From Escherichia coli (GTDB taxonomy: Bacteria; Pseudomonadota; Gammaproteobacteria; Enterobacterales; Enterobacteriaceae), in NCBI RefSeq assembly GCF_024298765.1, contig NZ_CP101210.1: a stretch of DNA of 64,000 bases. One strand, given 5' to 3'. Below, piece after piece: positions 5,392 through 64,000 of the stretch; position 1 is the stretch's first letter, and each line of letters opens with the position of its first letter. The position numbers were made by a program, and so were the translations under genes. The notes beneath the pieces were generated by a model that made no database searches, was not told the DNA's origin, and was given only the letters and a program-made list of their open reading frames with translations.

Positions 5392-6274
5392 AACCTAAAT
5401 GCTCGCCGCCGCACACGCCGTGCACTTCTGCGGTGACGTAGCTCGACTCCTGACTTGCCAGATAAACATATACAGGGGCCAGTTCCGCCGGTTGCCCCGC
5501 ACGTTTCATCGGCGTTTGCTGACCAAACTGCGGGATCTTATCCTGCGTTTGTCCGCCGGAAATTTGCAGTGCTGTCCAGATCGGGCCTGGCGCGACAATA
5601 TTCACCCGAATACCTTTCTCCGCGACCTGTTTTGCCAGGCCTCGGCTGTAGTTCAGAATCGCCGCCTTCGTAGCCGCATAGTCCAGTAAATGCGGACTTG
5701 GCTGGTATGCCTGGATTGACGAAGTGGTGATGATACTTGCACCTTTCGGTAGCAGGGGGATCGCTTCCTGGGTTAGCCAGAACAGCGCGAAAACGTTAAT
5801 GGCAAAGGTCTTTTGAAACTGTTCGCTGGTGAGGTCTGCAATATCAGGAATGGCAACCTGTTTCCCGGCGACCAGCGCCATAATATCCAGCCCGCCTAAC
5901 GCCTTGTGCGCTTCGTGAACCAGCGAACGGGCGAATTTCTCATCGCTTAAATCGCCTGGCAGCAGAACGGCTTTGCGTCCGCATTCTTCAATGATCTTTT
6001 TCACATCCTGAGCGTCTTCTTCTTCCACGGGAAGATAACTGATCGCCACGTCAGCCCCTTCACGCGCGTAAGCGATGGCGGCAGCGCGACCGATTCCGGA
6101 ATCGCCCCCTGTCACCAGGGCTTTACGATCTTTCAGGCGACCGCTACCAACATAGGTTTTCTCGCCGCAATCCGGTACCGGTGTCATCTTCGCCTGGATG
6201 CCTGGCGTCGGTTGTTTCTGTTTGGGATATTCACCAGTGTAATACTGCGTGGTCGGGTCTTTTAAATGAGACAT
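5390..6274 (-). CDS. yghA: short-chain dehydrogenase/reductase family oxidoreductase
   Basis: 294-aa [13 protein letters not shown]ossmann motif. Confidence 0.85.
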
Positions 6275-19275: not shown

Positions 19276-19290
19276 TACATGTTGTAGCAA

Positions 19291-19325
19291 CCCCGTACTG
19301 ATTATGAAGAATAATCAGTACGGGG
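19291..19325. terminator. perfect 15-bp-stem hairpin downstream of gss (terminator candidate)
   Basis: ccccgtactgattat-gaag-ataatcagtacgggg; no strong T-run follows on + strand. Confidence 0.45.
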
Positions 19326-19566
19326 ATTAATCAAAACATTCAACGTTTATATATTTCAATATTTATTTATTTAATATATGAATATATTAACCAGTGGAAT
19401 ACCTGTGTTTTGATTATTTCTAAAGATTTTGAATGAATGCTTATTGTCTGATACACAAGAAATAACACTCTTTTTATCGTTAAAAAAAGATATTTCACTT
19501 TGCCCATGCCGTTAAAGTCACTGATAATGCGTCCGTTCGTAAATTCAAAATGGCGTAATCTAATAT

Positions 19567-21807: not shown

Positions 21808-21980
21808 GAATATATCCTTAAATTTAAATATCCATCCAAAATATTTATTTGATTAATATGTTTTTATGAAAGCGTAATTCAGGTTAATGTCACAATTAAC
21901 CATTGTCACAATAAGGTTGAACGGATATTCTGAGCACGGACCACGTAATATTCAATACATTATTTGCTGCCGGGTTTTTC

Positions 21981-23529: not shown

Positions 23530-24879
23530 TTGGCGGGTTTTAACATCAAACATTGGTTTGCAGATGGCGCGTTTCGCACCATTATTCGCAATAGCGCCTG
23601 GTTAGGCTCCAGTAATGTCGTGAGCGCTTTGCTGGGTCTGTTGGCGCTCTCGTGTGCCGGTAAAGGGATGACGCCCGCCATGTTTGGCGTACTGGTGATT
23701 GTACAATCGTACGCCAAGTCGATCAGCGATTTTATTAAGTTTCAGACATGGCAGCTGGTGGTTCAGTACGGAACACCAGCATTAACCAACAATAATCCGC
23801 AGCAATTCCGCAATGTCGTCTCATTTTCCTTCTCGCTGGATATCGTCAGCGGCGCGGTGGCGATTGTCGGCGGCATTGCCTTACTCCCTTTTCTTTCCCA
23901 TTCATTAGGTCTGGATGACCAAAGCTTTTGGCTGGCAGCGCTGTATTGCACGCTCATTCCTTCAATGGCTTCCTCCACGCCGACCGGCATTCTGCGTGCG
24001 GTAGATCGCTTCGATCTAATTGCTGTACAGCAAGCGACGAAACCTTTTCTGCGCGCAGCGGGGAGCGTCGTTGCCTGGTATTTTGACTTTGGTTTTGCGG
24101 GTTTTGTTATTGCCTGGTACGCCTCGAATCTTGTTGGCGGCACCATGTACTGGTGGTTTGCCGCACGTGAATTACGCCGCAGAAATATCCATAACGCGTT
24201 CAAATTGAATCTGTTTGAGTCTGCCCGACACATCAAAGGCGCGTGGAGTTTTGTCTGGTCAACCAACATTGCCCATTCCATCTGGTCGGCGCGTAATTCG
24301 TGCAGCACAGTGTTGGTGGGGATCGTGTTAGGACCCGCTGCCGCCGGGTTATTTAAAATCGCCATGACATTCTTCGACGCCGCCGGAACGCCAGCGGGTT
24401 TACTGGGCAAAAGTTTTTACCCAGAGGTGATGCGTTTAGATCCGCGTACCACCAGACCGTGGTTGTTAGGCGTGAAGTCAGGTTTACTGGCGGGCGGAAT
24501 CGGTATTCTGGTGGCGCTCGCGGTGTTGATTGTCGGCAAGCCGCTCATTTCGCTGGTGTTTGGCGTTAAGTATCTCGAAGCGTATGACCTGATTCAGGTG
24601 ATGCTGGGCGCAATTGTGATCTCGATGCTGGGCTTCCCTCAGGAGTCATTGCTATTGATGGCGGGAAAACAGCGCGCTTTTCTCGTGGCGCAAACCATCG
24701 CCTCAATCGGCTACATCGTATTGCTGTTCATGTTCTGTCATCTGTTTGGCGTGCTGGGAGCAGCGTTTGCTTATTTCGGTGGTCAATGTCTGGATGTGGT
24801 GCTTTCGCTAATTCCGACCTTAAAGGCATTTTTTCAGCGCCATTCCTTGCTTTATAACGCAGCCGGAGAGAAATCCTGA
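23530..24879 (+). CDS. yghQ: MOP/Wzx-like multi-pass membrane flippase-family protein (start uncertain)
   Basis: Long hydrophobic ORF; first in-frame ATG at 23668; frame open upstream to TTG at 23530. Confidence 0.65.
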   Translation: MAGFNIKHWFADGAFRTIIRNSAWLGSSNVVSALLGLLALSCAGKGMTPAMFGVLVIVQSYAKSISDFIKFQTWQLVVQYGTPALTNNNPQQFRNVVSFSFSLDIVSGAVAIVGGIALLPFLSHSLGLDDQSFWLAALYCTLIPSMASSTPTGILRAVDRFDLIAVQQATKPFLRAAGSVVAWYFDFGFAGFVIAWYASNLVGGTMYWWFAARELRRRNIHNAFKLNLFESARHIKGAWSFVWSTNIAHSIWSARNSCSTVLVGIVLGPAAAGLFKIAMTFFDAAGTPAGLLGKSFYPEVMRLDPRTTRPWLLGVKSGLLAGGIGILVALAVLIVGKPLISLVFGVKYLEAYDLIQVMLGAIVISMLGFPQESLLLMAGKQRAFLVAQTIASIGYIVLLFMFCHLFGVLGAAFAYFGGQCLDVVLSLIPTLKAFFQRHSLLYNAAGEKS

Positions 24880-25703
24880 TGATGAGAAAATATTTCCCGC
24901 TAGAGGCGAGCGAGCGTCTATTTGTTGCGATTGAAGAAGATGATGTCGTTGATGCACAGGTCAGTTTGCCGCCGACTATCGCACTAAGTTGTACCACCGA
25001 AATCATCCATGATAATTACGCGTTATGCCTGCAATTCTGGCTCAATGGCGTCAATCGCCAGGAGTTACTGCGTTTAATATGCAAACAGGCCAAAGGCGAT
25101 GAGCTGACTGCTGATGAGCGCAAACAATTTAAATACATGCGAGCGCGCTACAAGCACCTGCGTTTTGCGCAACGGCTGTATTTAAAGAAGCATCAGGCCG
25201 GATTTTTATTCGGCAAAACGACCGTTTTTTTGGGGCGTTTTCAGGACGGCTTTCGTAACGGTAAGAAAAATATTGTGTCGTATTACGGCAACCTGTTACG
25301 GGTTTATTTAAGCTCTCCGGTCTGGTCGTTGGTGAACTATTCATTACGCCATAGCCAGTTAGAAAGCGTAAGCGGTTTTATTGCCTATCGGCAAAAGCAA
25401 ATGCATACCCTGAAAGAGATAATTGCCAAACCGCGACTAACCGGCAGGGAATTTCATGATGTGCGAAAAATCATCAGCCAGCAGGTTTCTTATTACGACA
25501 CCCTAAGATCGCTTGATCCTGAAAATAAAGAAGCGTTACAGATTTCCCGCTTCCTCGCCGCCATTAATGGCCTGATGGGGGATAAACACGACGACATGGT
25601 GGCGGATGATATGGAAAACCGCCAGTCGTATGATGCACCGATGGCGCTGGATAGCGATATTCGCCAGCGCTTAGAACTGCTGATTTCGCGTTTTCCGCTA
25701 TAA
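24879..25703 (+). CDS. hypothetical cytoplasmic protein, 274 aa (island gene)
   Basis: ATG overlaps yghQ stop (TGATG); GGAGAG RBS at 24865-24870; no domain recognised. Confidence 0.6.
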   Translation: MMRKYFPLEASERLFVAIEEDDVVDAQVSLPPTIALSCTTEIIHDNYALCLQFWLNGVNRQELLRLICKQAKGDELTADERKQFKYMRARYKHLRFAQRLYLKKHQAGFLFGKTTVFLGRFQDGFRNGKKNIVSYYGNLLRVYLSSPVWSLVNYSLRHSQLESVSGFIAYRQKQMHTLKEIIAKPRLTGREFHDVRKIISQQVSYYDTLRSLDPENKEALQISRFLAAINGLMGDKHDDMVADDMENRQSYDAPMALDSDIRQRLELLISRFPL

Positions 25704-25711
25704 CCGGAGCA

Positions 25712-26275
25712 ATGATGTCATCTCGTTTGATTATTGCGCTGATTATCATGCTCTTAGCCCCGGGTGTGCAGGCACACAATTTCGTCACTGGCAAAACGGT
25801 TACCCCCGTTTATATCCAGGAAGGCGGCGAGCTGCTTCGGAATAGCGACGACGAAATTCACTACCAAAAGTGGAACAGCACCCAATTGGCGGGAAAAGTT
25901 CGCATTATTCAGTATATCGCCGGGCGTAAGTCGGCGAAGAAAAAGAACTCACTGTTAATTAAAGCAGTTGAAGCGGCAAACTTTCCGCAGGATCGTTTTC
26001 AGCCCACCACCATTGTGAACACTGATGATGCCATCTTTGGTACCGGCTATTTTGTCGTTGGCAAAATCGAAAAAAATAAACGCCGCTATCCATGGGCGCA
26101 ATTCGTTATTGACGGCAATGGACAGGGACGCGTTGCCTGGCACTTGCAGGAGCAGAGTTCAACCATTCTGGTGCTGAATAAAACCGGGCAAATTCAGTGG
26201 GCAAAGGACGGCAGCCTGACGCCGGAAGAGGTAGATCATGTCATTGCGCTGGCGCAGAAGCTGATCAATGAATAA
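25712..26275 (+). CDS. YtfJ-family secreted/periplasmic protein paralog
   Basis: 187 aa; signal peptide MMSSRLIIALIIMLLAPGVQA; strong resemblance to E. coli YtfJ as recalled (KVRxxQHIAGR, TTIVNTDDAI, VQWAKDGxLTPEEV). Confidence 0.65.
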   Translation: MMSSRLIIALIIMLLAPGVQAHNFVTGKTVTPVYIQEGGELLRNSDDEIHYQKWNSTQLAGKVRIIQYIAGRKSAKKKNSLLIKAVEAANFPQDRFQPTTIVNTDDAIFGTGYFVVGKIEKNKRRYPWAQFVIDGNGQGRVAWHLQEQSSTILVLNKTGQIQWAKDGSLTPEEVDHVIALAQKLINE

Positions 26276-26304
26276 AAATTCAAAGGATTGAGGGCGTTAG
26301 TGAG

Positions 26305-27375
26305 ATGAAGCTGGTTGAACACTACATCATGCGTGGTACGCGCCGTCTGGTGCTGATTATCGTCGGTTTTCTGATCTTTATTTTCGCCAGCTACTCCGCA
26401 CAGCGTTATCTGACCGAAGCGGCAAATGGGACATTAGCTCTTGATGTTGTGCTGGATATCGTTTTCTACAAAGTGCTGATTGCACTGGAGATGTTGTTAC
26501 CTGTTGGACTGTATGTGTCAGTTGGCGTGACGCTAGGGCAGATGTATACCGACTCGGAAATTACCGCTATCTCTGCGGCGGGGGGCAGTCCGGGACGCTT
26601 GTACAAAGCCGTTCTTTATCTGGCGATACCGCTAAGTATTTTTGTCACCCTTCTGTCGATGTATGGTCGTCCGTGGGCTTATGCGCAGATTTATCAACTG
26701 GAGCAACAGTCACAGTCGGAGCTGGATGTTCGCCAGTTGCGGGCAAAGAAATTTAACACTAACGATAACGGACGAATGATCCTTTCGCAGACGGTTGATC
26801 AGGATAATAATCGCCTGACTGATGCGCTGATTTATACTTCTACTGCTAATCGAACCCGCATTTTCCGCGCCCGTTCGGTTGATGTGGTTGACCCATCACC
26901 TGAGAAACCGACCGTTATGTTGCATAACGGGACCGCCTATCTTCTCGATCATCAGGGGCGTGACGACAACGAACAGATCTACCGTAATCTGCAATTACAT
27001 CTGAATCCGCTGGATCAAAGCCCTAACGTCAAACGCAAAGCAAAATCGGTCACGGAGCTGGCGCGCTCCGCCTTTCCTGCCGATCATGCCGAACTGCAAT
27101 GGCGACAAAGCCGTGGCCTGACAGCATTGTTGATGGCGCTGCTGGCCATTTCATTAAGTCGGGTAAAACCGCGGCAAGGGCGATTTTCAACGTTATTGCC
27201 ACTGACGTTGCTGTTTGTTGCCATTTTTTATGGCGGCGACGTCTGCCGTACGCTGGTGGCTAACGGCGCGATTCCCCTCATTCCTGGTTTGTGGTTAGTA
27301 CCCGGACTCATGCTAATGGGCCTGCTGATGTTGGTCGCACGCGACTTCTCTTTGCTGCAGAAATTTTCCCGATGA
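26305..27375 (+). CDS. LptF-like permease (YjgP/YjgQ family) paralog
   Basis: 356 aa; 6-TM pattern with large periplasmic loop; YTDSEIT and KPRQGRF motifs resembling LptF. Confidence 0.7.
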   Translation: MKLVEHYIMRGTRRLVLIIVGFLIFIFASYSAQRYLTEAANGTLALDVVLDIVFYKVLIALEMLLPVGLYVSVGVTLGQMYTDSEITAISAAGGSPGRLYKAVLYLAIPLSIFVTLLSMYGRPWAYAQIYQLEQQSQSELDVRQLRAKKFNTNDNGRMILSQTVDQDNNRLTDALIYTSTANRTRIFRARSVDVVDPSPEKPTVMLHNGTAYLLDHQGRDDNEQIYRNLQLHLNPLDQSPNVKRKAKSVTELARSAFPADHAELQWRQSRGLTALLMALLAISLSRVKPRQGRFSTLLPLTLLFVAIFYGGDVCRTLVANGAIPLIPGLWLVPGLMLMGLLMLVARDFSLLQKFSR

Positions 27376-28451
27376 ATGTTTTCAGTCGCTATTTAATCCG
27401 TCATCTCTTTCTCGGTTTTGCCGCCGCCGCAGGGCTATTGCTGCCGCTTTTTACCACCTTCAACCTGATTAACGAACTGGATGATGTCAGCCCGGGTGGT
27501 TATCGCTGGACTCAGGCGGTGCTGGTGGTGCTGATGACCTTACCGCGCACACTGGTCGAACTTTCGCCGTTTATCGCCTTATTGGGAGGGATTGTCGGCC
27601 TGGGGCAGTTATCGAAAAACAGTGAGCTTACCGCCATTCGCAGCACGGGGTTTTCTATCTTCCGTATTGCACTGGTGGCGCTGGTTGCCGGGATATTGTG
27701 GACTGTTTCATTAGGCGCGATAGATGAGTGGGTGGCGTCGCCATTGCAGCAACAGGCGCTGCAAATCAAATCGACTGCCACTGCGTTGGGGGAGGACGAT
27801 GACATTACCGGCAATATGCTGTGGGCCAGGCGTGGTAATGAATTTGTGACGGTGAAATCGCTGAACGAGCAGGGCCAGCCGGTGGACGTGGAGATATTTC
27901 ATTACCGCGATGATCTCTCGCTCGAATCCTACATTTATGCGCGCAGTGCTACCATTGAAGACGACAAAACGTGGATCCTGCATGGTGTGAATCATAAAAA
28001 ATGGCTGAATGGCAAAGAAACGCAGGAAACATCTGATAATCTTCCCTGGCAATCGGCCTTCACCAGTATGAATCTTGAAGAGTTATCGATGCCGGGAAAT
28101 ACTTTTTCTGTCCGTCAACTTAATCATTACATCCATTATTTGCAGGAAACCGGGCAACCCAGCAGCGAATACCGCCTTGCACTGTGGGAAAAACTGGGAC
28201 AACCCATCTTGACCCTGGCGATGATTTTGCTGGCTGTGCCGTTTACCTTTAGCGCCCCGCGTTCGCCTGGGATGGGTAGCCGTCTCGCTGTAGGCGTCAT
28301 CGTTGGCTTACTCACCTGGATCAGCTATCAAATCATGGTCAATCTGGGATTGTTATTTGCGTTGAGCGCACCTGTTACCGCGCTCGGTTTACCGGTAGCG
28401 TTTGTGCTGGTGGCGTTGAGCCTGGTGTATTGGTATGACAGACAACATTAA
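27372..28451 (+). CDS. LptG-like permease (YjgP/YjgQ family) paralog
   Basis: ATG at 27372 overlaps upstream stop (ATGA); MNVFSRYLIRHLF N-terminus typical of LptF/G family; 359 aa. Confidence 0.7.
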   Translation: MNVFSRYLIRHLFLGFAAAAGLLLPLFTTFNLINELDDVSPGGYRWTQAVLVVLMTLPRTLVELSPFIALLGGIVGLGQLSKNSELTAIRSTGFSIFRIALVALVAGILWTVSLGAIDEWVASPLQQQALQIKSTATALGEDDDITGNMLWARRGNEFVTVKSLNEQGQPVDVEIFHYRDDLSLESYIYARSATIEDDKTWILHGVNHKKWLNGKETQETSDNLPWQSAFTSMNLEELSMPGNTFSVRQLNHYIHYLQETGQPSSEYRLALWEKLGQPILTLAMILLAVPFTFSAPRSPGMGSRLAVGVIVGLLTWISYQIMVNLGLLFALSAPVTALGLPVAFVLVALSLVYWYDRQH

Positions 28452-28485: not shown

Positions 28486-29658
28486 TTACTGCTTCAGAGT
28501 AGCAAATGCCTGAATGATGGCATCGATTTGCTCACGACTGTGGGCAGCGTTTACGCTACAGCGCAGCAGCGTGATGCCTGCAGGCGCGGCAGGTGGCAGG
28601 ATAAGATTCACATAAACGCCCAGCGAAATAAGCTCGCGCCAGATGCGTAAACCTTCCTCTTTCGAACCGATTATTACTGGCACTACCGGGCTAATATGTG
28701 AACTTAACTCATAACCCAGTTTTTGCAGACCGTCATACAGATGGTTGGCGTTATCCATCAGTTTTTGCCGCAGCTCTGGTTGTGTGGAAATGGTTCTTAA
28801 CGACGAGCGCACGGTCGCAATGCAGGACGGAGAAGGAGAGGCGGTAAAAATATACGGGCGGCTGCCGTAGCGCAGCACTTCCATCGCTTCTGAACCCACG
28901 GCAAAACCACCAATGGAAGCCAAACTTTTACTGAAGGTGCCGACGATAATATCCACGTCGTCTTCAACGCCAACGGCTTCAACCAGTCCGCGGCCTGTTG
29001 CGCCTAACACGCCAAACGAATGTGCTTCATCGACAATCAAATAACCACCGAGACGACGTTTGATATCAACAATTTCTGCCAGCGGCGCAACGTCACCGAG
29101 CATACTGTAGATGCCTTCAACGATAATAATCGCCTCTTTCGCCCGTTCACCGAGGCGGACCATGCGCCGTTCCAGATCGTTGACGTCATTATGGCGGAAA
29201 CGAATAATCTCTGCGCCGCCGAGAGAACAGGCGTCATAAATACTGGCGTGGCTGTCGGCATCCAGTAACACCACGGCGTTATGGTCGGCAAGTGCGCTGA
29301 TGACACCTAAATTAGCGGTATAACCGGTTGAAAAAACGATAGCGGTAGGGCGATTGAAAAACTCGGCAATCTCTTTCTCTAACGCCAGATGCGGCGCATA
29401 ACTGCCGTTTGCCATACGAGAACCGGTGGTGCCAGTGCCTTGGGCCGCTAACGCTGCCTGACCTTCGCGGATAGCATCATGATTAAAGGTTAAACCGAGA
29501 TAATTATTGGTCCCGGCCAGAATCACTTTTTTATTGCCGATCCGGCCTTCGGTGGCGGAATACACTTCATCAATACAGGTGCCAAATGGTGTTAACCCGT
29601 TGTCACTAAATTGCAGGCGCTCGCCAGCAAGGCGCGCATATTTATCGTATAGCCCCAT
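28486..29658 (-). CDS. alpha-oxoamine synthase, serine palmitoyltransferase-like (PLP-dependent)
   Basis: 390 aa; DEAHSFG and GTFSKSLAS motifs (Lys244 codon at 28927-28929) typical of SPT/KBL/AONS family. Confidence 0.75.
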   Translation of the reverse strand: MGLYDKYARLAGERLQFSDNGLTPFGTCIDEVYSATEGRIGNKKVILAGTNNYLGLTFNHDAIREGQAALAAQGTGTTGSRMANGSYAPHLALEKEIAEFFNRPTAIVFSTGYTANLGVISALADHNAVVLLDADSHASIYDACSLGGAEIIRFRHNDVNDLERRMVRLGERAKEAIIIVEGIYSMLGDVAPLAEIVDIKRRLGGYLIVDEAHSFGVLGATGRGLVEAVGVEDDVDIIVGTFSKSLASIGGFAVGSEAMEVLRYGSRPYIFTASPSPSCIATVRSSLRTISTQPELRQKLMDNANHLYDGLQKLGYELSSHISPVVPVIIGSKEEGLRIWRELISLGVYVNLILPPAAPAGITLLRCSVNAAHSREQIDAIIQAFATLKQ

Positions 29659-29906
29659 TATTTATTCTCCAGCCATGGAAGTAGAGTTTCCATTAATTGC
29701 GCAGGGGTTTTGACATCCAGCAGAATATTAATAGGAATGGAAATATCGAATCTGTCTTCCAGCATCATTAAGAGATCCATCACTTTGATCGACTCCAGGC
29801 CAAGATCGTTGACGAGATCGCTGTCGGGCTTAATTTCCACACCGTTTTCGACCAAATCCTGTAAACAGGAAAGGATGTAATCCATTACTATTTCACGATT
29901 TACCAT
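29658..29906 (-). CDS. dedicated acyl carrier protein
   Basis: 82 aa; DLGLESIKVMDLLMMLEDRF helix-2 region with candidate phosphopantetheine Ser; stop overlaps AOS start (TAATG). Confidence 0.65.
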   Translation of the reverse strand: MVNREIVMDYILSCLQDLVENGVEIKPDSDLVNDLGLESIKVMDLLMMLEDRFDISIPINILLDVKTPAQLMETLLPWLENK

Positions 29907-29937: not shown

Positions 29938-30852
29938 TCAAAATAGCCCGTTGCGTAATGCGTGTTCCAGGCTAATCCCGGGAAACCAATTAATATCTTC
30001 AGAAATACGGTTATTATTTGCCGACCAGTCGGCGTGGGTTAATTCACGAATTTTCGAGCGGGTCAGCATAGGTTCTTTACCTGCCAGGCGACTCAACGCA
30101 GTACTGATATCCGCAAGGCAGGTGAGTAGCGGCAGAGGAATGCCAACCATCCGCACAGAACCACAACGGGCTTCGGCGGCAAGCTGTCGTACGCGTTGCC
30201 AGTCATAGCCGCCAGCGACGCCATCGCATAATTCATAGGTTTGCGTCTGTACAGTTTCGGCGTTTAACCACTGACCCACTGCTTGCGCAAAATCGGTGAC
30301 GTGCAGGAAAGAGAGTTGTGTATCTGGCGCACCAAGTCGTGGCAGCAGGCCGCGCAGCATCCAGTCAAACAGCGGTTTTAACTCTTTATCGCCGGGACCA
30401 TACACGGCTGTCGGGCGAAAAATGCCCAGCGTAATTTCGTCAGCCATTGCGATCAGTCGTTGTTCGGCGACGTGTTTGGAATTTGCGTACCAGGAGAGTT
30501 CGGGATGGCGCGCCGCCAGCGAAGAGATAAACAGAAAACGTTGGCAAAAGCCGCTCTCTTTTGCCGCTTGCATCAGGCGCAGGCTGCCGTCAACGTTACA
30601 GCGGGTAAAAATCTCTTCTTTGTGTCCGCGCACTTGTCCGGCGCAATGGACCACCGCGCTGGCTCCGGCAACCAGTTCGCTAAGCGAATGTGTATCTTCC
30701 AGCGAACCGCGCACCCAGATGAGATTATCATTGACGTGAGCGCGGGCAGTACGCGTCAATGTGCGAACGTGAAAGCCGCGGGCGAGCAGGTTATCGATAA
30801 TATATTTACCGATAAACCCGGTAGCGCCCGTCACCGCGACAGTTTGATTCAT
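29938..30852 (-). CDS. NAD(P)-dependent epimerase/dehydratase-fold reductase
   Basis: ATG at 30852 (MNQTVAVTGATGFIGKYI), 304 aa; YANSK catalytic dyad; track ORF has an N-terminal extension overlapping the upstream gene. Confidence 0.7.
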   Translation of the reverse strand: MNQTVAVTGATGFIGKYIIDNLLARGFHVRTLTRTARAHVNDNLIWVRGSLEDTHSLSELVAGASAVVHCAGQVRGHKEEIFTRCNVDGSLRLMQAAKESGFCQRFLFISSLAARHPELSWYANSKHVAEQRLIAMADEITLGIFRPTAVYGPGDKELKPLFDWMLRGLLPRLGAPDTQLSFLHVTDFAQAVGQWLNAETVQTQTYELCDGVAGGYDWQRVRQLAAEARCGSVRMVGIPLPLLTCLADISTALSRLAGKEPMLTRSKIRELTHADWSANNNRISEDINWFPGISLEHALRNGLF

Positions 30853-32573
30853 GCCAGGGATTCCTGCACATGAAGGCTTGCAGCATAAGCCTTCTGATAA
30901 CGTTTTTTCGCTTCCGCACGGGCAGGCTTGCCGGAGGACGTTCGGGGAATACTGTGGGGCGGCAACAGATCGATAGCCGCGGTCACGCCAAATTCGCTTT
31001 GGATCCGTGCTACCAGTGCGTGGATAAGCTGCCCACGACGTTCTTCGTCGCTGATCCGACACTGGATCTGCAAAATGATTTTTTCCTGGGCGGTAACAAA
31101 AGCAATCGCATCGCCAGAATGAATTTCCGGTTCCTGTTCCGCAATGTATTCAATATCCTGCGGCCAGATATTACGGCCACGAATAATAATCAGATCTTTA
31201 ATGCGTCCGGTGACATACAGATAACCGTCCAGCAGATAACCGAGGTCGCCGGTGTCTAACCAGCCCGTCGCGGCAATCTCGTCTTGCGAAACCTGGTCGC
31301 CAAAGTACCCGCTCATCAGGCTGGGGCCGGAGATGCAAATATGGCCTACCACACGTTCCGCGACAGGTATATCTGCTTCATTGCGGATTTCAATGCCATG
31401 TTCCGGCAACGCTTTACCGCAGTTGACGAAAGTCGATACGGCGCGTGTTTCAGCACCCGGCGCGACGGCTTTACCCTGGTATTCGAGGATGTCGCGATCC
31501 ACTTCGTTAACCACAACCCCGCAGGCTTCATCAGAGAAGCTGACAGCCAGCGCATTTTCTGCCAGTCCGTAGCACGGCATGAAAGTTTTATCGTCAAAGT
31601 TAACCTGACGAAAACATTCAGCGAATTGATGGAGTTGTTCTGCGGAGATCGGTTCTGCTCCAATACCAGCGACGCGCCAGCAGGAAAGATCCAGTTCAGC
31701 GAGATCTTTTTCATTCACGCGGCGCTGGCACAATTCATAGCCAAACGGCGGTGCAACGGAAACGGTGCCGCGATTTTTACTGATCAATTTAAGCCATTGC
31801 AGAGGACGCATGGCAAAATCCTGAGTGCGCAAATAATCTACTGAAAGCTGCGTGGCGACGGGGGTCAGGAGAAAGCCGACCAGTCCCATATCATGGTAGA
31901 AAGGCAGCCAGGAGACGCAGCGGTCGCCAGGGCGTAATTTAATGCCATCGTGGCTTATAGCACGTAGATTAGCCATCACTTCGTGATGGGTGATAATGAC
32001 GCCACGGGGAAAACGGGTGCTGCCGGAGGTGTACTGGAGGTAGGCGATATCGTTCGGAACTGGACGCTGGAGCGCAACATCGGCTTCCGGTAATGCCTTA
32101 AACCAGGCGTGGCTTAAAACATGTAATTCGGGGTTGTTGTTATGCGTCGCGGCATTGACCAGCGGTAACCACTCATCACCAGTGATAATGGCTGCGGGCT
32201 GGCAACTTGCCAGTAAACCCTGCAGTTTGGCGCTCCAGGAATCCCGCTGACCGACGCCCATTGGAATCGCCAACGGGACGGCGACTAAGCCGGCACACTG
32301 GCAGGAAAAAAAAGCCTCTACAAACCCGCTACTCGTTTCGGCAATCAGCGCCACGCGATCGCCTTTTTTCAGGTTCAGCGATAACAACCGCTTCGCACCA
32401 GCTTCGGCACGCGCTTTTAACGTCTGATATTCCAGTTGATCTTCAAGTTGGCAACGTCTGTCATAAAAATTCATTCCGGCGCTACTCAGAGCGGCGTAGT
32501 CCAAAGCATCAACCAGCGTTGGAAAATCGGCATAGCGCATAGGTAGGGAATGCGTAAAGATTTTATTAGACAT
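30849..32573 (-). CDS. fatty acyl-AMP ligase / acyl-ACP synthetase-like adenylating enzyme
   Basis: About 574 aa from ATG at 32573; YTSGSTRFPRG core motif; GRIKDLIIIRGRNIWPQDIE; stop overlaps next start. Confidence 0.7.
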   Translation of the reverse strand: MSNKIFTHSLPMRYADFPTLVDALDYAALSSAGMNFYDRRCQLEDQLEYQTLKARAEAGAKRLLSLNLKKGDRVALIAETSSGFVEAFFSCQCAGLVAVPLAIPMGVGQRDSWSAKLQGLLASCQPAAIITGDEWLPLVNAATHNNNPELHVLSHAWFKALPEADVALQRPVPNDIAYLQYTSGSTRFPRGVIITHHEVMANLRAISHDGIKLRPGDRCVSWLPFYHDMGLVGFLLTPVATQLSVDYLRTQDFAMRPLQWLKLISKNRGTVSVAPPFGYELCQRRVNEKDLAELDLSCWRVAGIGAEPISAEQLHQFAECFRQVNFDDKTFMPCYGLAENALAVSFSDEACGVVVNEVDRDILEYQGKAVAPGAETRAVSTFVNCGKALPEHGIEIRNEADIPVAERVVGHICISGPSLMSGYFGDQVSQDEIAATGWLDTGDLGYLLDGYLYVTGRIKDLIIIRGRNIWPQDIEYIAEQEPEIHSGDAIAFVTAQEKIILQIQCRISDEERRGQLIHALVARIQSEFGVTAAIDLLPPHSIPRTSSGKPARAEAKKRYQKAYAASLHVQESLA

Positions 32574-32600
32574 ATACACCACGAAAAAATTGGATATCAA

Positions 32601-32943
32601 AAATAAAATGACAATAATGCGGTGGATTATATAGGCATAAAAGATAAATGAGATAGTATTTTCATCAGTGTGAAAATGAACATTGATTTAAATAATGAGT
32701 TTGAGTTTTTTTGTTTTTATTGTGAATGATATTTAATTTATGAATATATTAAGAAGAAGCCTTGTCCGGTCGCCTTAAATCGACAAAAGGCATTGTGGCG
32801 CTTCTGTGTAGTCTCTGACCTTATCGTAATCATTAATAATACTATTTATTCGTCGTTTGTATTCATTGGGTTGATTGTTAAGGTGCCGTTCGTTGCTGTT
32901 GCAACCTGTTTGTCACCGTTAATTATTTGTTACCCACAGAACT
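32601..32943. promoter_or_regulatory. AT-rich divergent intergenic region (promoters for lipid operon and yghO)
   Basis: About 340 bp markedly AT-rich with A/T tracts, flanked by divergent start codons. Confidence 0.5.
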
Positions 32944-34086
32944 ATGGAATGCGATCTGCTGATGATTAAAATTGAAAAAGTAATTAATAAAAATGACCTT
33001 AAGGCATTTATCGCTTTTCCGTCATCACTTTATCCCGACGATCCAAACTGGATACCCCCTTTATTCATTGAACGCAACGAGCATTTGTCTGCGAAAAATC
33101 CGGGGACGGACCATATCATCTGGCAGGCGTGGGTGGCAAAAAAAGCGGGGCAGATAGTTGGGCGTATTACCGCGCAAATCGATACCTTGCACCGCGAGCG
33201 TTACGGCAAAGATACCGGTCATTTCGGCATGATTGACGCCATTGATGATCCGCAGGTTTTTGCCGCGTTGTTTGGCGCAGCGGAAGCGTGGTTGAAGTCA
33301 CAAGGTGCAAGTAAGATCAGCGGTCCTTTCAGCCTGAATATCAATCAGGAAAGCGGATTACTGATTGAAGGTTTCGATACACCACCCAGTGCGATGATGC
33401 CACACGGTAAACCGTGGTATGCCGCGCATATTGAACAACTGGGTTATCACAAAGGCATTGATTTACTGGCGTGGTGGATGCAGCGAACCGATCTCACTTT
33501 CTCTCCGGCGCTAAAAAAACTGATGGATCAGGTGCGCAAAAAAGTGACCATTCGCTGCATCAATCGCCAGCGGTTTGCCGAAGAGATACAGATCCTGCGT
33601 GAGATTTTCAATTCTGGCTGGCAGCACAACTGGGGATTTGTGCCGTTTACCGAACATGAATTCGCGACCATGGGCGATCAACTTAAATATCTGGTGCCGG
33701 ACGATATGATCTACATCGCTGAGATTGATTCTGCACCCTGCGCGTTTATTGTTGGCTTGCCGAACATCAACGAGGCGATTGCCGATCTGAACGGATCGCT
33801 CTTTCCCTTCGGCTGGGCAAAATTGCTGTGGCGTTTGAAAGTCAGCGGTGTGCGAACTGCGCGAGTGCCGCTGATGGGCGTGCGGGACGAGTATCAGTTC
33901 AGCCGCATCGGCCCGGTAATTGCGCTGTTATTGATTGAAGCCTTACGCGATCCGTTTGCCCGTCGGAAGATCGATGCGCTGGAGATGTCATGGATCCTCG
34001 AAACCAATACAGGCATGAATAACATGCTGGAACGCATTGGGGCGGAGCCGTACAAGCGTTACCGATTGTATGAAAAGCAGATTTGA
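32944..34086 (+). CDS. yghO: GNAT-fold acyltransferase-like protein (uninterrupted reading frame)
   Basis: 380-aa ORF from ATG 32944 (alternative ATG 32962); divergent from lipid operon. Confidence 0.65.
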   Translation: MECDLLMIKIEKVINKNDLKAFIAFPSSLYPDDPNWIPPLFIERNEHLSAKNPGTDHIIWQAWVAKKAGQIVGRITAQIDTLHRERYGKDTGHFGMIDAIDDPQVFAALFGAAEAWLKSQGASKISGPFSLNINQESGLLIEGFDTPPSAMMPHGKPWYAAHIEQLGYHKGIDLLAWWMQRTDLTFSPALKKLMDQVRKKVTIRCINRQRFAEEIQILREIFNSGWQHNWGFVPFTEHEFATMGDQLKYLVPDDMIYIAEIDSAPCAFIVGLPNINEAIADLNGSLFPFGWAKLLWRLKVSGVRTARVPLMGVRDEYQFSRIGPVIALLLIEALRDPFARRKIDALEMSWILETNTGMNNMLERIGAEPYKRYRLYEKQI

Positions 34087-43533: not shown

Positions 43534-43542
43534 ATCAATAAT

Positions 43543-43575
43543 GCCGGATGATCGTTAATATCATCCGGCTTCATT
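43543..43575 (+). terminator. rho-independent terminator downstream of glcA
   Basis: gccggatgat...atcatccggc hairpin followed by T-rich stretch. Confidence 0.5.
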
Positions 43576-60915: not shown

Positions 60916-61242
60916 TTATGGCTGCCAGAAATGATCTGATGGTTTGTCGTCTGGCTCTGCAAGTACCCTGTTGATATCCCGGGAACCATGAACGATACGT
61001 TCGATACGAACTTCAGTATCCAGTACCCTGAACAGCAGAAGGTAACGACCATACGAACAACCTCTGATCCCAGCCCCTAACTCGGGTCTTTCTCTGTAGA
61101 GTACTGGCGATTCGGCTATCAACAGACATTGTTGGTAAAGCTCTTCGGTAAAACTGATTGCACGGACAGGATTATCCTGAGCGATCCAGTCACCTATAGC
61201 TTCAAGATCGTGTTCTGCTAATGGTGAAACAGTCAGTTTCAT
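60916..61242 (-). CDS. ParE/RelE-family type II toxin
   Basis: 108 aa; 4-nt overlap with upstream antitoxin gene; ParE-like sequence. Confidence 0.7.
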   Translation of the reverse strand: MKLTVSPLAEHDLEAIGDWIAQDNPVRAISFTEELYQQCLLIAESPVLYRERPELGAGIRGCSYGRYLLLFRVLDTEVRIERIVHGSRDINRVLAEPDDKPSDHFWQP

Positions 61243-61502
61243 ATTGGCTGTTCACCTTCTGCCATCTTTTTGTATTTGTGCGTCAGTCGCCCGAATACCT
61301 CTTCAGCACTTTTACTTTCACCGCTGTTGATGCCTGCGGCCACGGCGCTCTGGAGTGATTCAAGCTTTATCTGCTGTTCCCGTTCTTCCAGAGCACGAAG
61401 TCCGGCACGAATGACTTCACTTGTATTGTTGTACCGACCACTTTCTATTTGTTCGCGGATAAACGTTTCAAAGTAAGGACTGAGGGATACACTGGTAGGC
61501 AT
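61239..61502 (-). CDS. ParD-like type II antitoxin
   Basis: 87 aa; ribbon-helix-helix-like N-terminus; immediately upstream of the toxin. Confidence 0.7.
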   Translation of the reverse strand: MPTSVSLSPYFETFIREQIESGRYNNTSEVIRAGLRALEEREQQIKLESLQSAVAAGINSGESKSAEEVFGRLTHKYKKMAEGEQPI

Positions 61503-61573
61503 GGTTATTTTCTCGCCGATTGATTACTATCAATTAATAATAGTTAATATTCGCGAATTGTAAAATACCTCTT

Positions 61574-62440
61574 TTATGCCTTGCGGCTTTTGTTCACTGT
61601 GCTTGCCAGGGCTTCCGGGTAGTGTCTGGCAATAATATCATTAAGCCTGTCAACCAGCTCTGGTTTCCTGAACGTGATGTGCGCGGAGCCCTTCTTAAAG
61701 TATCTGATGCTGAACATCTCATCTTCATAGTCCTCTTTACCCTGAACAGACTGGATGTGATCATCCAGATGAATGGTGATGTTTTCCCGGTTGTCGGGGA
61801 TCGGTTTGCCGCTGAACAGGTGCAGCATTCTTTCCAGATCGGCAAGTCGATCGGCCTGTTGTCCGGTGATAAGATGAAACCCCCACCGGTCCCACCTCAC
61901 CAGATTGTTGACGATAATTTTACTGCCAAATTTGCAGGGTGAATTGGTTTTGTAATTCCAGCTCAGTCCTCTGAAAACGTTGAGCACCCCTCGCTCAAAC
62001 ACTTCATCTTTGTTCTGGTGCAGTTGTTCAAACGTGCTCAGGATATTTGCTTCGCTGATTTCCGGAAAATTATCGTACTCCAGTGACCGGTACCATGTAT
62101 CACGGGCTTGTGCATCCATTAATGACAGCATCCCTGAACGTTGCATCAGATCACGCCAGATTTCGCGGTCAAGGTTGCGGGTGATGGCTTTCATTGCGGT
62201 TTCCGGTTTTTCCATCAGCCAGCAACCGCAGCGAAAATCCTGTTTCATGGCCCAGTCCAGTGCAGTTTTACCTCCGATGCTTTCCGTCAGCACCGAGATT
62301 TCTGCCAGTTGCCGGATAAGTGTGTCGATTTGCAGCAGCGCACTCTTTCGTACAGCCAGAATGTGGCGGATGCTGGTTGAGCCGATAACGTCCGTATGCC
62401 CGTTGACCACTTCCGGACGGGGGGCTGTGATTTCAGACAT
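61574..62440 (-). CDS. hypothetical protein, 288 aa (island cargo)
   Basis: Long ORF with no conflicting frame; function not recognisable. Confidence 0.55.
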   Translation of the reverse strand: MSEITAPRPEVVNGHTDVIGSTSIRHILAVRKSALLQIDTLIRQLAEISVLTESIGGKTALDWAMKQDFRCGCWLMEKPETAMKAITRNLDREIWRDLMQRSGMLSLMDAQARDTWYRSLEYDNFPEISEANILSTFEQLHQNKDEVFERGVLNVFRGLSWNYKTNSPCKFGSKIIVNNLVRWDRWGFHLITGQQADRLADLERMLHLFSGKPIPDNRENITIHLDDHIQSVQGKEDYEDEMFSIRYFKKGSAHITFRKPELVDRLNDIIARHYPEALASTVNKSRKA

Positions 62441-62524
62441 AATCGATATTCCTTTTTGCAGATAAATGAAAACGCCAGCCCTGTTCAGGCTGGCGTCAGT
62501 GGAATGAAGTCTGGTGAGTAAGAC

Positions 62525-62767
62525 TCACCGGTTCTGTTGCAGAAGCTGCAACTGGCGCAGGATACGGATATCCTCCCTGGCCTGTTCGATACAGGGCAAC
62601 AGTGCTGCCGAATCCGTTCTATCCTCATCGTTGTCAAAGATAATTCCCGATTCGCAGTCGATATTGTCCTGTAGCCACGCAATCAGAATATCCAGTGCGG
62701 TTTCCGTGGTTAATGATTTCATGTTGTTCCTGGTTACCAGTCGAAAGTGGGCAGGTCCGGCAGACAT
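62525..62767 (-). CDS. hypothetical small protein, 80 aa
   Basis: ORF only; partially overlaps the next ORF. Confidence 0.35.
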   Translation of the reverse strand: MSAGPAHFRLVTRNNMKSLTTETALDILIAWLQDNIDCESGIIFDNDEDRTDSAALLPCIEQAREDIRILRQLQLLQQNR

Positions 62768-63225
62768 TCAGCGCTGGCATCCAGATGAATGAGACTGACG
62801 CCATAACGTCGGGTAAGTGTGACAACCAGACGACGGAACGTTTTTGACAGGCCCAGGCGCTTAAGCCGCAGAACCGGGTATGACCACGCATCGGTACGTA
62901 ACAGATATCCGCTACCTGTGAAATGAATCCATTCTGATTCGCCGGTGCCATTCGTCTGATGTGACAGCGAGTACAGCCAGGCGTTGTCCTTTGCCGTGAT
63001 ATGCGCGGTACTGCAGCGTATGCCGGTAAGGGCCGCCGCAGATGATGGCGTGCGCTCTGCTGATGTCCGGTCAGATTCATCAACAACACGAAGGGAGTAA
63101 CCGTTATCGCAGACCACGTTAATCAGTTCAGCGAGAGTAACACCATCGACGTCAACGACAATGCGCCCCATGTTCAGTGCCTGCACGTTAATGCTGTCGG
63201 CTTCCAGCGTCAGGGCCAGTTTCAT
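62734..63225 (-). CDS. hypothetical protein downstream of CbtA-like toxin (YeeW-position gene)
   Basis: 163-aa ORF; start overlaps toxin stop by 4 nt. Confidence 0.5.
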   Translation of the reverse strand: MKLALTLEADSINVQALNMGRIVVDVDGVTLAELINVVCDNGYSLRVVDESDRTSAERTPSSAAALTGIRCSTAHITAKDNAWLYSLSHQTNGTGESEWIHFTGSGYLLRTDAWSYPVLRLKRLGLSKTFRRLVVTLTRRYGVSLIHLDASAECLPDLPTFDW

Positions 63226-63599
63226 TGTTTCGCCCCCGGATGTTTACCCAGGGTAATGTTATTTACCGTTCTGTAATTGTCGCGGGCCATCAGGCCGGTT
63301 GCCCGGCGGGCCCGGAGGATATCAATACTGTTTATTAACTGAGAACGGGTACAGGCGCTGAATCCTGGCTGGTCGGTACGTACCAGTGCGTATTTTTCAA
63401 CGAGAAAGTTCACCGCATCGCACAGTGAAATGCCTGCCTCAATATGCTGCTCAATCACACGTTCATCAGCGAACGGTGTGTCATTCAGTGTGAGGCCGTA
63501 ATGCTGGTCCAACAGTCGGGTGAGCAGTGTCTGCCAGATGGTGACGGGAGACGGGCAGCGCGATGCCTCCCGTACGTGTGTGTCAGGTAATGTTTTCAT
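63222..63599 (-). CDS. CbtA/YeeV-family type IV toxin (cytoskeleton-binding)
   Basis: ATG at 63599 (MKTLP...), 125 aa; near-identical to the CbtA/YkfI/YpjF family as recalled. Confidence 0.8.
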   Translation of the reverse strand: MKTLPDTHVREASRCPSPVTIWQTLLTRLLDQHYGLTLNDTPFADERVIEQHIEAGISLCDAVNFLVEKYALVRTDQPGFSACTRSQLINSIDILRARRATGLMARDNYRTVNNITLGKHPGAKQ

Positions 63600-63645
63600 C
63601 TTAAGTTCTCTGTAACTGGTAGTGCTAAAGGTGAGATATTCGGGG

Positions 63646-64000
63646 TTATGAGGTGGTTGCGGGTGCCAGTGTCGGATAAACAGCCATATAAACGTAACCA
63701 CAGCTGCCGAGGGTGTCGGCTTCGCAGGTCAGCCCTCTGGCATACAGCGTGACGGTATGCTGATGGCGGGGATTCAGTTCACCGCTGGTGAGCATGAGTT
63801 CCAGTTGTTTCATCAGCAGCGGAAAGGCCTGGTCCAGATGATACGCATCCGCGTCGCTAAACTGCCCCCTGATACCGGCGCGGTCGGCAAGGTAATGCAA
63901 CCGGTTACCCTCCTGCACCAGACGTGCCCCGAAACAGGGCGTCACGGTGCAGGGGAGCCCCCACCAGGGGCGGTCGTTGTTGTTGTCGGGATGCGTTGTC
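63646..64000 (-). CDS. CbeA/YeeU-family antitoxin, 3' portion (5' end beyond window end)
   Basis: Frame stays open to the window edge (…DNNNDRPWWGLPCTVTPCFGARL…); matches CbeA/YfjZ family. Confidence 0.75.
   Translation of the reverse strand, partial: TTHPDNNNDRPWWGLPCTVTPCFGARLVQEGNRLHYLADRAGIRGQFSDADAYHLDQAFPLLMKQLELMLTSGELNPRHQHTVTLYARGLTCEADTLGSCGYVYMAVYPTLAPATTS

Follow-up and report, generated by a model that had tools for sequence, protein, structure and literature searches.

The intergenic region between aasR and yghO of Escherichia coli was analyzed in a window of 64,000 nucleotides, which is the whole stretch of DNA studied (contig NZ_CP101210.1 of the NCBI RefSeq assembly GCF_024298765.1). 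This DNA is chromosomal and comes from a strain other than K-12. Both genes belong to the known five-gene dihydroceramide cluster, in which aasR, cerR, acpR and spt are transcribed leftwards and yghO rightwards. In E. coli BL21(DE3), ECD_02851 to ECD_02854 and yghO/ECD_02850 were named aasR, epi, acpR, spt and aca, and they are the five structural genes for dihydroceramide (Padilla-Gomez et al., PMC9386255); the same authors reported all five genes clustered solely in Caulobacter and E. coli BL21 (PMC9386255). The first gene of the leftward operon, aasR (30849-32573, minus strand; counterpart of ECD_02851), encodes a fatty acyl-AMP ligase (FAAL) or specialized acyl-ACP synthetase according to a subfamily match to NCBIfam NF006624 (861 bits). 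It is followed on the same strand by cerR/epi (29938-30852), whose product belongs to the NAD-dependent epimerase/dehydratase family according to annotation, NCBIfam and the literature and is the presumptive keto-sphinganine/oxo-ceramide reductase; by acpR (29658-29906; 40.6% G+C), which encodes a specialized acyl carrier protein; and by spt (28486-29658), which encodes a serine palmitoyltransferase matched by the NCBIfam equivalog NF047599 (598.6 bits, cut-off 500). On the plus strand, yghO (32944-34086) encodes a homolog of aca/bCerS, the N-acyltransferase of the ceramide pathway (PMC9386255, Fig. 9 legend). Searches of Pfam, NCBIfam and PDB sequences gave no hit for YghO, which is thus identified from the literature.

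The Caulobacter crescentus genes CC_1162-CC_1165 and CC_1154 share the spt, acpR, epi/cerR, aasR and aca/bCerS functions with the E. coli cluster, but the acyltransferase gene of Caulobacter lies several genes off, whereas in Enterobacterales it is always found directly divergent from aasR. Therefore, one spacer controls the whole pathway: the aasR/yghO spacer is the sole non-coding DNA able to do so and is the shared bidirectional control region of the ceramide cluster. As a sequence type, it is an ordinary AT-rich divergent promoter region. Its regulation is little studied, and our literature search found nothing published on the regulation of the E. coli ceramide locus.

According to the RefSeq annotation of near-identical genomes and to its composition, this control region extends over 370 bp with 31.9% G+C (positions 32574-32943), from the aasR ATG at 32573 on the minus strand to the yghO ATG at 32944 on the plus strand. 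The first-pass annotation had described a strongly AT-rich divergent control region with poly-A/T tracts at 32601-32943, between the lipid operon and yghO. Annotation and the published ceramide gene set bear out this location, but the left edge at 32601 corresponds to the end of the longest possible open reading frame (ORF; TTG at 32600), and the real left bound is 32574. The composition was also confirmed: the segment 32601-32943 shows 32.1% G+C in relation to a mean of 52.1% for all 343-bp windows (standard deviation, SD, 5.1%), which places it about 3.9 SD under the mean and in the lowest 0.9%, and the spacer contains nine runs of at least four A/T, equivalent to 24 per kb versus 9.6 per kb window-wide. 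Its A+T content is 68% over the 370 bp and 72-80% over approximately 225 bp, versus 48% in the window. A sliding 100-bp profile located this AT-rich core at 32549-32773, extending into the first aasR codons, while the yghO-proximal half of the spacer shows just 59-64% A+T. Such AT-richness is not exceptional among the intergenic regions of the window. The 17 regions of at least 100 bp have a mean G+C of 41.1 ± 8.2%, and the aasR/yghO spacer, only 1.1 SD under this mean, is the fourth lowest after gss/pitB (28.9%), glcA/sslE (29.5%) and yghT/yghS (30.1%). RefSeq records are inconsistent on the aasR start for identical sequence, giving proteins of 574 (ATG at 32573) or 562 (ATG at 32540) amino acids; the start at 32573 is favored by a GGTG ribosome-binding site and by the relatives. 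Most YghO homologues align only from residue 5-7, and translation of yghO may in reality begin with the ATG at 32962.

A 1.5-kb query covering the junction has a match in 4562 of 5426 complete E. coli genomes (84%) and is full in 4090 (about 75%). The spacer itself is present in 4160 complete genomes, single-copy in each of them, and no annotated feature lies under it in 60 sampled RefSeq records. A repeat or mobile element in the spacer was rejected, as only short repeats at chance level were found in this single-copy DNA. The locus adjoins glcC in every Escherichia clade sampled, cryptic clades included. A scan with one genome per species detected relatives of yghO in Pseudomonas and in about 15 further genera of Enterobacterales; the divergent five-gene arrangement is found in every locus with enough flank, and outside Escherichia it does not lie beside glcC. 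The aasR/yghO divergence is kept in about 40 fetched loci from Enterobacterales species, metagenome bins and two Pseudomonas, with spacers of 270-1095 bp whose G+C is 7-27 points under that of the flanking genes in all cases. The first-pass annotation had also taken the AT-richness as typical of xenogeneic DNA, and this claim is poorly supported: the flanking genes of E. coli have 50-54% G+C (40.6% in acpR), the glcC site is constant across Escherichia and the junction is full in about three quarters of the genomes. In the flanking genes, the G+C content at third codon positions (GC3), 0.48-0.57, is just slightly under the 0.59-0.62 of the neighbouring genes. Since the flanks are not compositionally foreign and the site is fixed in Escherichia, the term applies at most to an ancient transfer, of which the patchy distribution in Enterobacterales is the only hint. 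Two records stand apart. Of the 4575 places that match the 1.5-kb junction, one is in a plasmid record instead of a chromosome. A 430-bp contig of low coverage in the Macrococcus sp. DPC7161 assembly has 99% identity to yghO of E. coli, and almost certainly reached this assembly as an E. coli contaminant.

Selective constraint within the spacer was studied by aligning 10 Escherichia sequences, taken across phylogroups and from cryptic clades; the neutral yardstick was the divergence of these genomes at four-fold sites in aasR, yghO and spt. The 127 bp proximal to aasR (32574-32700) are under purifying selection, a new result of this analysis. This block shows a divergence of 5.5-8.7%, versus 15-29% at four-fold sites, and its ratio to the four-fold rate is 0.24-0.36, meaning three to four times more conserved (Fisher p 2e-3 to 2e-7). 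The middle segment (32701-32835), which holds a G+C-richer island at approximately 32766-32820, evolves at or above the neutral rate, with 30-40% divergence versus 22-29% at four-fold sites in the two most distant clades; in these same clades, the right part (32836-32943) evolves at or slightly above the neutral rate. The constrained block overlaps the AT-rich core, as expected for promoter and transcription-factor sites. An ST131-type allele (e.g., strain MNCRE44) was observed in approximately 425 complete genomes, with a spacer 80-90% identical and a flanking 1.5 kb at least 95% identical; its differences cluster in the middle and right parts (32701-32943), the middle segment differing at 16%, which suggests either recombination or a divergent regulatory allele. 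The situation is reversed in E. whittamii, with a spacer and yghO near-identical to those of E. coli and an aasR 34% diverged at four-fold sites.

We infer promoter positions from our own hexamer scan and, for yghO, from the layout in other genera. The sole perfect -10 hexamer of the spacer, TATAAT (32626-32631, read on the minus strand from 32631 to 32626), is part of the invariant block, 52 nt away from the ATG of aasR, and is the candidate -10 of the aasR operon, with a predicted leader of approximately 46 nt. The best -35 for this hexamer, ATCTCA at 17-nt spacing, matches merely three of six positions, and the combination of a perfect -10 with a poor -35 suggests an activator-dependent aasR promoter. 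Pseudocitrobacter shows a TATATT/ATATAA counterpart at a comparable distance from aasR. For yghO, the candidate -10 is TATCGT at 32822-32827 on the plus strand (TATCAT in O103:H2), whose position matches a GATAAT hexamer of other genera; the pattern T-A-T-x-x-T is kept in nine of the 10 aligned Escherichia sequences, and E. whittamii shows TACCGT. The transcription starts predicted from these elements are near 32619 for aasR and near 32834 for yghO. The scan also found several further candidates matching 8-9 of 12 promoter positions.

The cluster seems to be expressed at a low level in the laboratory. The lipid profile of BL21(DE3), which carries the cluster, lacks 3-oxo-sphinganine with the empty vector, and its formation requires plasmid-borne AasR, AcpR and SPT together, SPT alone being insufficient (PMC9386255). 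This fits a native aasR operon that is weakly expressed in BL21(DE3). The suggestion in the first-pass annotation that the locus may be cryptic under laboratory conditions is therefore supported in part and indirectly, by 3-oxo-sphinganine being made only with plasmid genes; complete silence is not proven.

H-NS was considered as the factor responsible. In enterotoxigenic E. coli (ETEC), for which chromatin immunoprecipitation sequencing (ChIP-seq) data exist from strain H10407, H-NS occupancy tracks low G+C, and enterobacterial DNA that exceeds 200 bp at 70-80% A+T is as a rule associated with H-NS (PMC4287617). The sslE (yghJ)-gsp promoter, in the 484-bp glcA/sslE spacer (43534-44017), the most AT-rich long spacer of the window, was our positive control. 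It lies in the same window as the aasR/yghO spacer, is of near-equal composition (29.5 versus 31.9% G+C) and belongs to an accessory envelope-related operon, part of which is lost in K-12. The aasR/yghO and sslE regions have 68 and 70.5% A+T, 9.2 and 10.4% TpA, and 7.4 and 7.3% pure-A/T 8-mers, respectively, and their frequencies of A/T tracts also match. Purified H-NS binds to the sslE promoter, whose derepression in hns mutants amounts to 2.2-3.5-fold at 22°C (PMC5012682, PMC2094087). Of the two regions, only that of sslE has a start site that was mapped, Fis sites and direct evidence for H-NS; moreover, the sslE spacer is unidirectional, between tandem genes, whereas the aasR/yghO spacer is divergent. 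Using the nucleation motif tCGATAAATT (Lang et al., 2007), H-NS-template 10-mers with a fit of at least 7/10 amount to 32 per kb in the spacer versus 7.7 per kb window-wide, an approximately four-fold difference. In the gss/pitB (19276-19566) and yghT/yghS (21808-21980) spacers, whose AT-richness is on par with that of aasR/yghO, template matches of at least 8/10 are denser than composition predicts (P=0.02-0.03).

Insertion sequence (IS) junctions were also found at the locus, and IS5-family elements are known to be captured by H-NS-bound DNA (PMC11335895). Three independent junctions fall inside the AT-rich stretch or on its borders. In strain APEC 102026, the junction sequences show a TTAG target duplication of ISKpn26 (IS5-family) at 32566-32569, in aasR codons 2-3. 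Strain FORC_082 has an IS1 junction at 32905, 38 bp upstream of yghO, and everything between this point and gss, which is retained, is deleted. In the K-12 lineage, the IS5 junction is at 32981-32984 (TTAA), and everything from the yghQ 3' end to yghO codon 13, the whole spacer included, is missing. Because this IS5-linked deletion removes the spacer, K-12 data sets are uninformative about it. Two other strains show breakpoints inside the flanking genes: Ec-RL2-1X in yghO at approximately 33070, and OkiPb01679 in aasR at approximately 32062. The H-NS-silenced bgl and proU operons also possess an AT-rich regulatory stretch, and bgl receives IS5/IS1 insertions (PMC11677980), a likeness to the junctions of the aasR/yghO region.

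Taken as a whole, we read the spacer as a bidirectional control region with a constrained, activator-dependent aasR promoter block, on which H-NS keeps the pathway low, a reading that we hold with about even confidence. The working part would most likely be the AT-rich block at 32574-32700, with the activator-dependent aasR promoter and regulator sites. As the core has 72-80% A+T over approximately 225 bp, H-NS probably coats it and would hold the promoters low in ordinary laboratory culture, so that the pathway may stay near-silent until some signal or activator relieves H-NS. On these general grounds, H-NS binding to the spacer is likely, and H-NS silencing of the ceramide cluster, the suggestion of the first-pass annotation, is plausible.

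Several results weigh against this reading. The template density is fully explained by composition (P=0.36 versus composition-matched shuffles), no site in the spacer has fewer than two mismatches to the consensus TCGATAAATT, a single one with at most two being found at 32735-32744, and A-tract phasing was not detected, the AA/TT periodicity at 10-11 bp not exceeding that of shuffles (P=0.51). The motif test has little power, because the sslE positive control was likewise not enriched for the H-NS template beyond composition. High-affinity tCGATAAATT-type sites are found in bgl and proU amid AT-rich DNA, both upstream and downstream (PMC2094087), whereas the aasR/yghO spacer has no site above 8/10 and its downstream genes are not AT-rich. 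Furthermore, the AT-rich patch is short and flanked by genes of 50-54% G+C, and a 93-bp AT-rich promoter fragment of ETEC lacking AT-rich flanks failed to recruit H-NS in vivo (PMC4287617). Regarding the promoters, none exceeding 9/12 consensus positions is present in the spacer, and a standard promoter scan gave one plus-strand site versus 3.5 expected from shuffles. The accumulation of breakpoints, with three or four of about six sampled in the AT-rich third of the 1.5-kb query, is not significant, and insertions are rare, at most about 30 in 4160 genomes. In addition, Padilla-Gomez et al. suspect that the chromosomal ECD_02852 (cerR) and yghO products, as "intrinsic enzymes", further transform the product (PMC9386255), a point against complete silence. 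Finally, our literature search found nothing tying H-NS, ChIP occupancy or expression in hns mutants to this locus.

The best surviving alternative, which we consider less probable but still a serious contender, is that the spacer is an ordinary AT-rich divergent promoter where H-NS is unimportant, and that the low laboratory expression comes from the absence of an activator or signal related to the envelope, lipids or oxygen. Its G+C content, only 1.1 SD under the intergenic mean of the window, agrees with this, as do the coincidence of the AT-rich core with the constrained block, the activator-type aasR promoter, the match of H-NS motif density to composition, the lack of an A-tract curvature signal and the presence of a specific regulator site, the PhoP box, in orthologous spacers of other genera. 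It is opposed by the usual association of H-NS with enterobacterial DNA of this A+T content and length (PMC4287617), by the H-NS regulation of the sslE promoter of equal composition, and by the fact that no convincing site was found among 21 regulator patterns in a consensus scan of the spacer. The best of these was an ArcA-box-like direct repeat, GTTAATTATTTGTTA (32918-32932, plus strand; 13/15 of the consensus), 12-26 nt upstream of the yghO ATG and largely invariant in Escherichia, whose P=0.013 is uncorrected and is lost after correction. A FadR-like site (10/13, P=0.03 uncorrected) was not significant after correction either, and the patterns of CRP, FNR, Fur, CpxR, PmrA, RcsAB, EvgA, FabR, IHF, Lrp, SlyA, marbox, PhoB, PhoP, OmpR, NagC, LexA, sigma-E and sigma-54 were at chance level (P≥0.09). 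A motif common with the neighbouring yghT/yghS spacer was tried and rejected, as the best shared words equal the shuffle maxima.

Comparison with other genera raises a further possibility. The E. coli spacer shows no blastn-short similarity outside Escherichia, while the long spacers of other genera share a conserved module of approximately 100 nt with three parts. The first part, read on the aasR strand and located 347-372 nt from yghO, is a PhoP box, TGTTTA-N5-TGTTTA. It is perfect in seven Serratia loci, Klebsiella indica, Pantoea brenneri and two Tatumella, and matches 11/12 positions in Pantoea sp. A4; the box lies at 5602-5618 of locus L013 (Serratia bockelmannii) and 5625-5641 of locus L022 (K. 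indica), with equivalent sites in loci L014-L016, L018, L020, L038, L039, L044, L045 and L047. Boxes of at least 11/12 were found in 15 of 43 loci, versus 1.0 expected from shuffles. The hexamer columns have majority fractions of 1.00 and 0.98, against 0.69 for the N5 and 0.67-0.73 for the flanks, and such invariant hexamers with a variable N5 and variable flanks are the signature of a real binding site. The second part is a AAAAGTGAA-N5-TCATTTAA motif. The third is a 15-nt core, GCATTAAGTGGTAAA, present in 24 of 34 non-Escherichia loci from approximately 10 genera, mostly 261-360 nt upstream of yghO and with a GATAAT-like hexamer 34 nt downstream; this core might serve as an unusual promoter or as the site of an activator. 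In L013 (5675-5689) and the other 23 loci, it is often followed by a complementary AATGC, forming a short hairpin or palindrome.

These boxes agree with the known role of PhoPQ in outer-membrane lipid remodelling. PhoP-activated promoters of the mgtA, phoP and pagP type carry (T/G)GTTTA-N5-(T/G)GTTTA, as do the Serratia, K. indica, Pantoea and Tatumella spacers; unlike in those promoters, no -10 is found at the canonical 12 nt from the box, even in the box-bearing genera. Since the box of the relatives is perfect and invariant, the pathway looks PhoP-controlled in other Enterobacterales, although our literature search found nothing connecting PhoP with enterobacterial sphingolipid genes. In all Escherichia clades there is no PhoP box, the best match being at most 9/12, which is the modal best score of shuffles. 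Two possible vestiges of the module were found in E. coli. The sequence TGTGAAAATGAACATTGATTTAA (32669-32691, plus strand) resembles AAAAGTGAA-N5-TCATTTAA by local alignment to the Tatumella (P=0.01) and Serratia (P=0.035) modules versus shuffles, which is a weak signal, uncorrected for eight comparisons; and GCATTGTGGCG (32790-32800, plus strand) is, by sequence comparison, a possible decayed remnant of GCATTAAGTGGTAAA, not significant alone (P=0.58). A MAFFT alignment of the Escherichia spacer to the cross-genus module was not convincing and was discarded. The control region of Escherichia may thus have become shorter and passed to a conserved block specific to this lineage. In its full form, with the ceramide cluster as a PhoP-controlled envelope-remodelling module of which Escherichia lost the box, reduced the spacer from 600-800 to 370 bp and rewired control to an H-NS-silenced 127-bp element, this scenario is speculative and we consider it rather unlikely. 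An 11/12 PhoP-box-like repeat, TGTTAATTTTTTGTTTA, was also observed at 43818-43834, in the glcA/sslE spacer.

Decaying DNA beside a dispensable cluster that is being lost, with AT-richness as mutational drift, is very improbable. Repeated IS-mediated loss or disruption in K-12, FORC_082, APEC 102026, Ec-RL2-1X and OkiPb01679 speaks for it, as do the neutral or faster evolution of the middle and right parts of the spacer and the absence or degeneration in Escherichia of the PhoP box and core element of other genera. Against it stand the strong constraint on the left block, the intact state of all five ORFs, the complete junction in 4090 of the 5426 genomes and its presence in all cryptic Escherichia clades, and the activity of the E. 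coli enzymes when expressed. Control of the cluster by a small protein or a structured RNA (small RNA, leader or riboswitch) encoded in the spacer is close to excluded: the length of the spacer with its constrained 127-bp block, the 240-440 nt left untranslated in relatives between the conserved module and either gene, and an 18-codon ORF inside the block (32683-32627, minus strand) are in its favor, but Rfam gave only noise in the E. coli spacer (E approximately 2-3, cut-off E≤5) and no match at the gathering threshold in nine related loci, folding was no better than that of shuffles, with z-scores of +0.17 (putative leader of aasR), -0.94 (conserved block) and +0.33 (part proximal to yghO), the only two ORFs of at least 20 amino acids (31 and 58) are implausible, and the 18-codon ORF lacks a Shine-Dalgarno sequence and all its between-clade substitutions are non-synonymous. 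A small protein downstream of the Serratia PhoP box was likewise rejected, as it is not conserved in Klebsiella, Pantoea and Tatumella and its tblastx matches occur in all frames.

Other features were observed in the window. An operon at 23530-28451 converges directly on the ceramide operon. It comprises a second pair of lptF/lptG-like permease genes, genes for a member of the YtfJ family and for a hypothetical protein, and yghQ, annotated as "LPS biosynthesis" (flippase-like), and is a candidate export system for the sphingolipid; K-12 keeps only a truncated yghQ of this operon. The right end of the window (60916-64000) contains toxin-antitoxin genes of the relE/parD-like and cbtA/cbeA kinds, together with DUF4942, DUF957 and DUF5983 genes, a set typical of a CP4-type prophage remnant and unrelated to the ceramide spacer.

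E. coli is described in textbooks as sphingolipid-free. Approximately three quarters of complete E. coli genomes hold an intact five-gene ceramide pathway, and its enzymes work when expressed. Knowing what keeps the spacer off, whether H-NS, an absent activator or both, would tell how to seek native E. coli ceramide, for which hns mutants, low temperature, envelope stress, low Mg2+ and anaerobiosis are candidate conditions. The PhoP box of the relatives provides a concrete, testable regulatory hypothesis for enterobacterial sphingolipids; if PhoP control was indeed lost in Escherichia and replaced by H-NS silencing, most natural E. coli would be latent ceramide producers, with sphingolipid made only on de-silencing. 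The same knowledge would also reveal whether the lipid has a bearing on outer-membrane properties, phage or polymyxin sensitivity, or host interaction.

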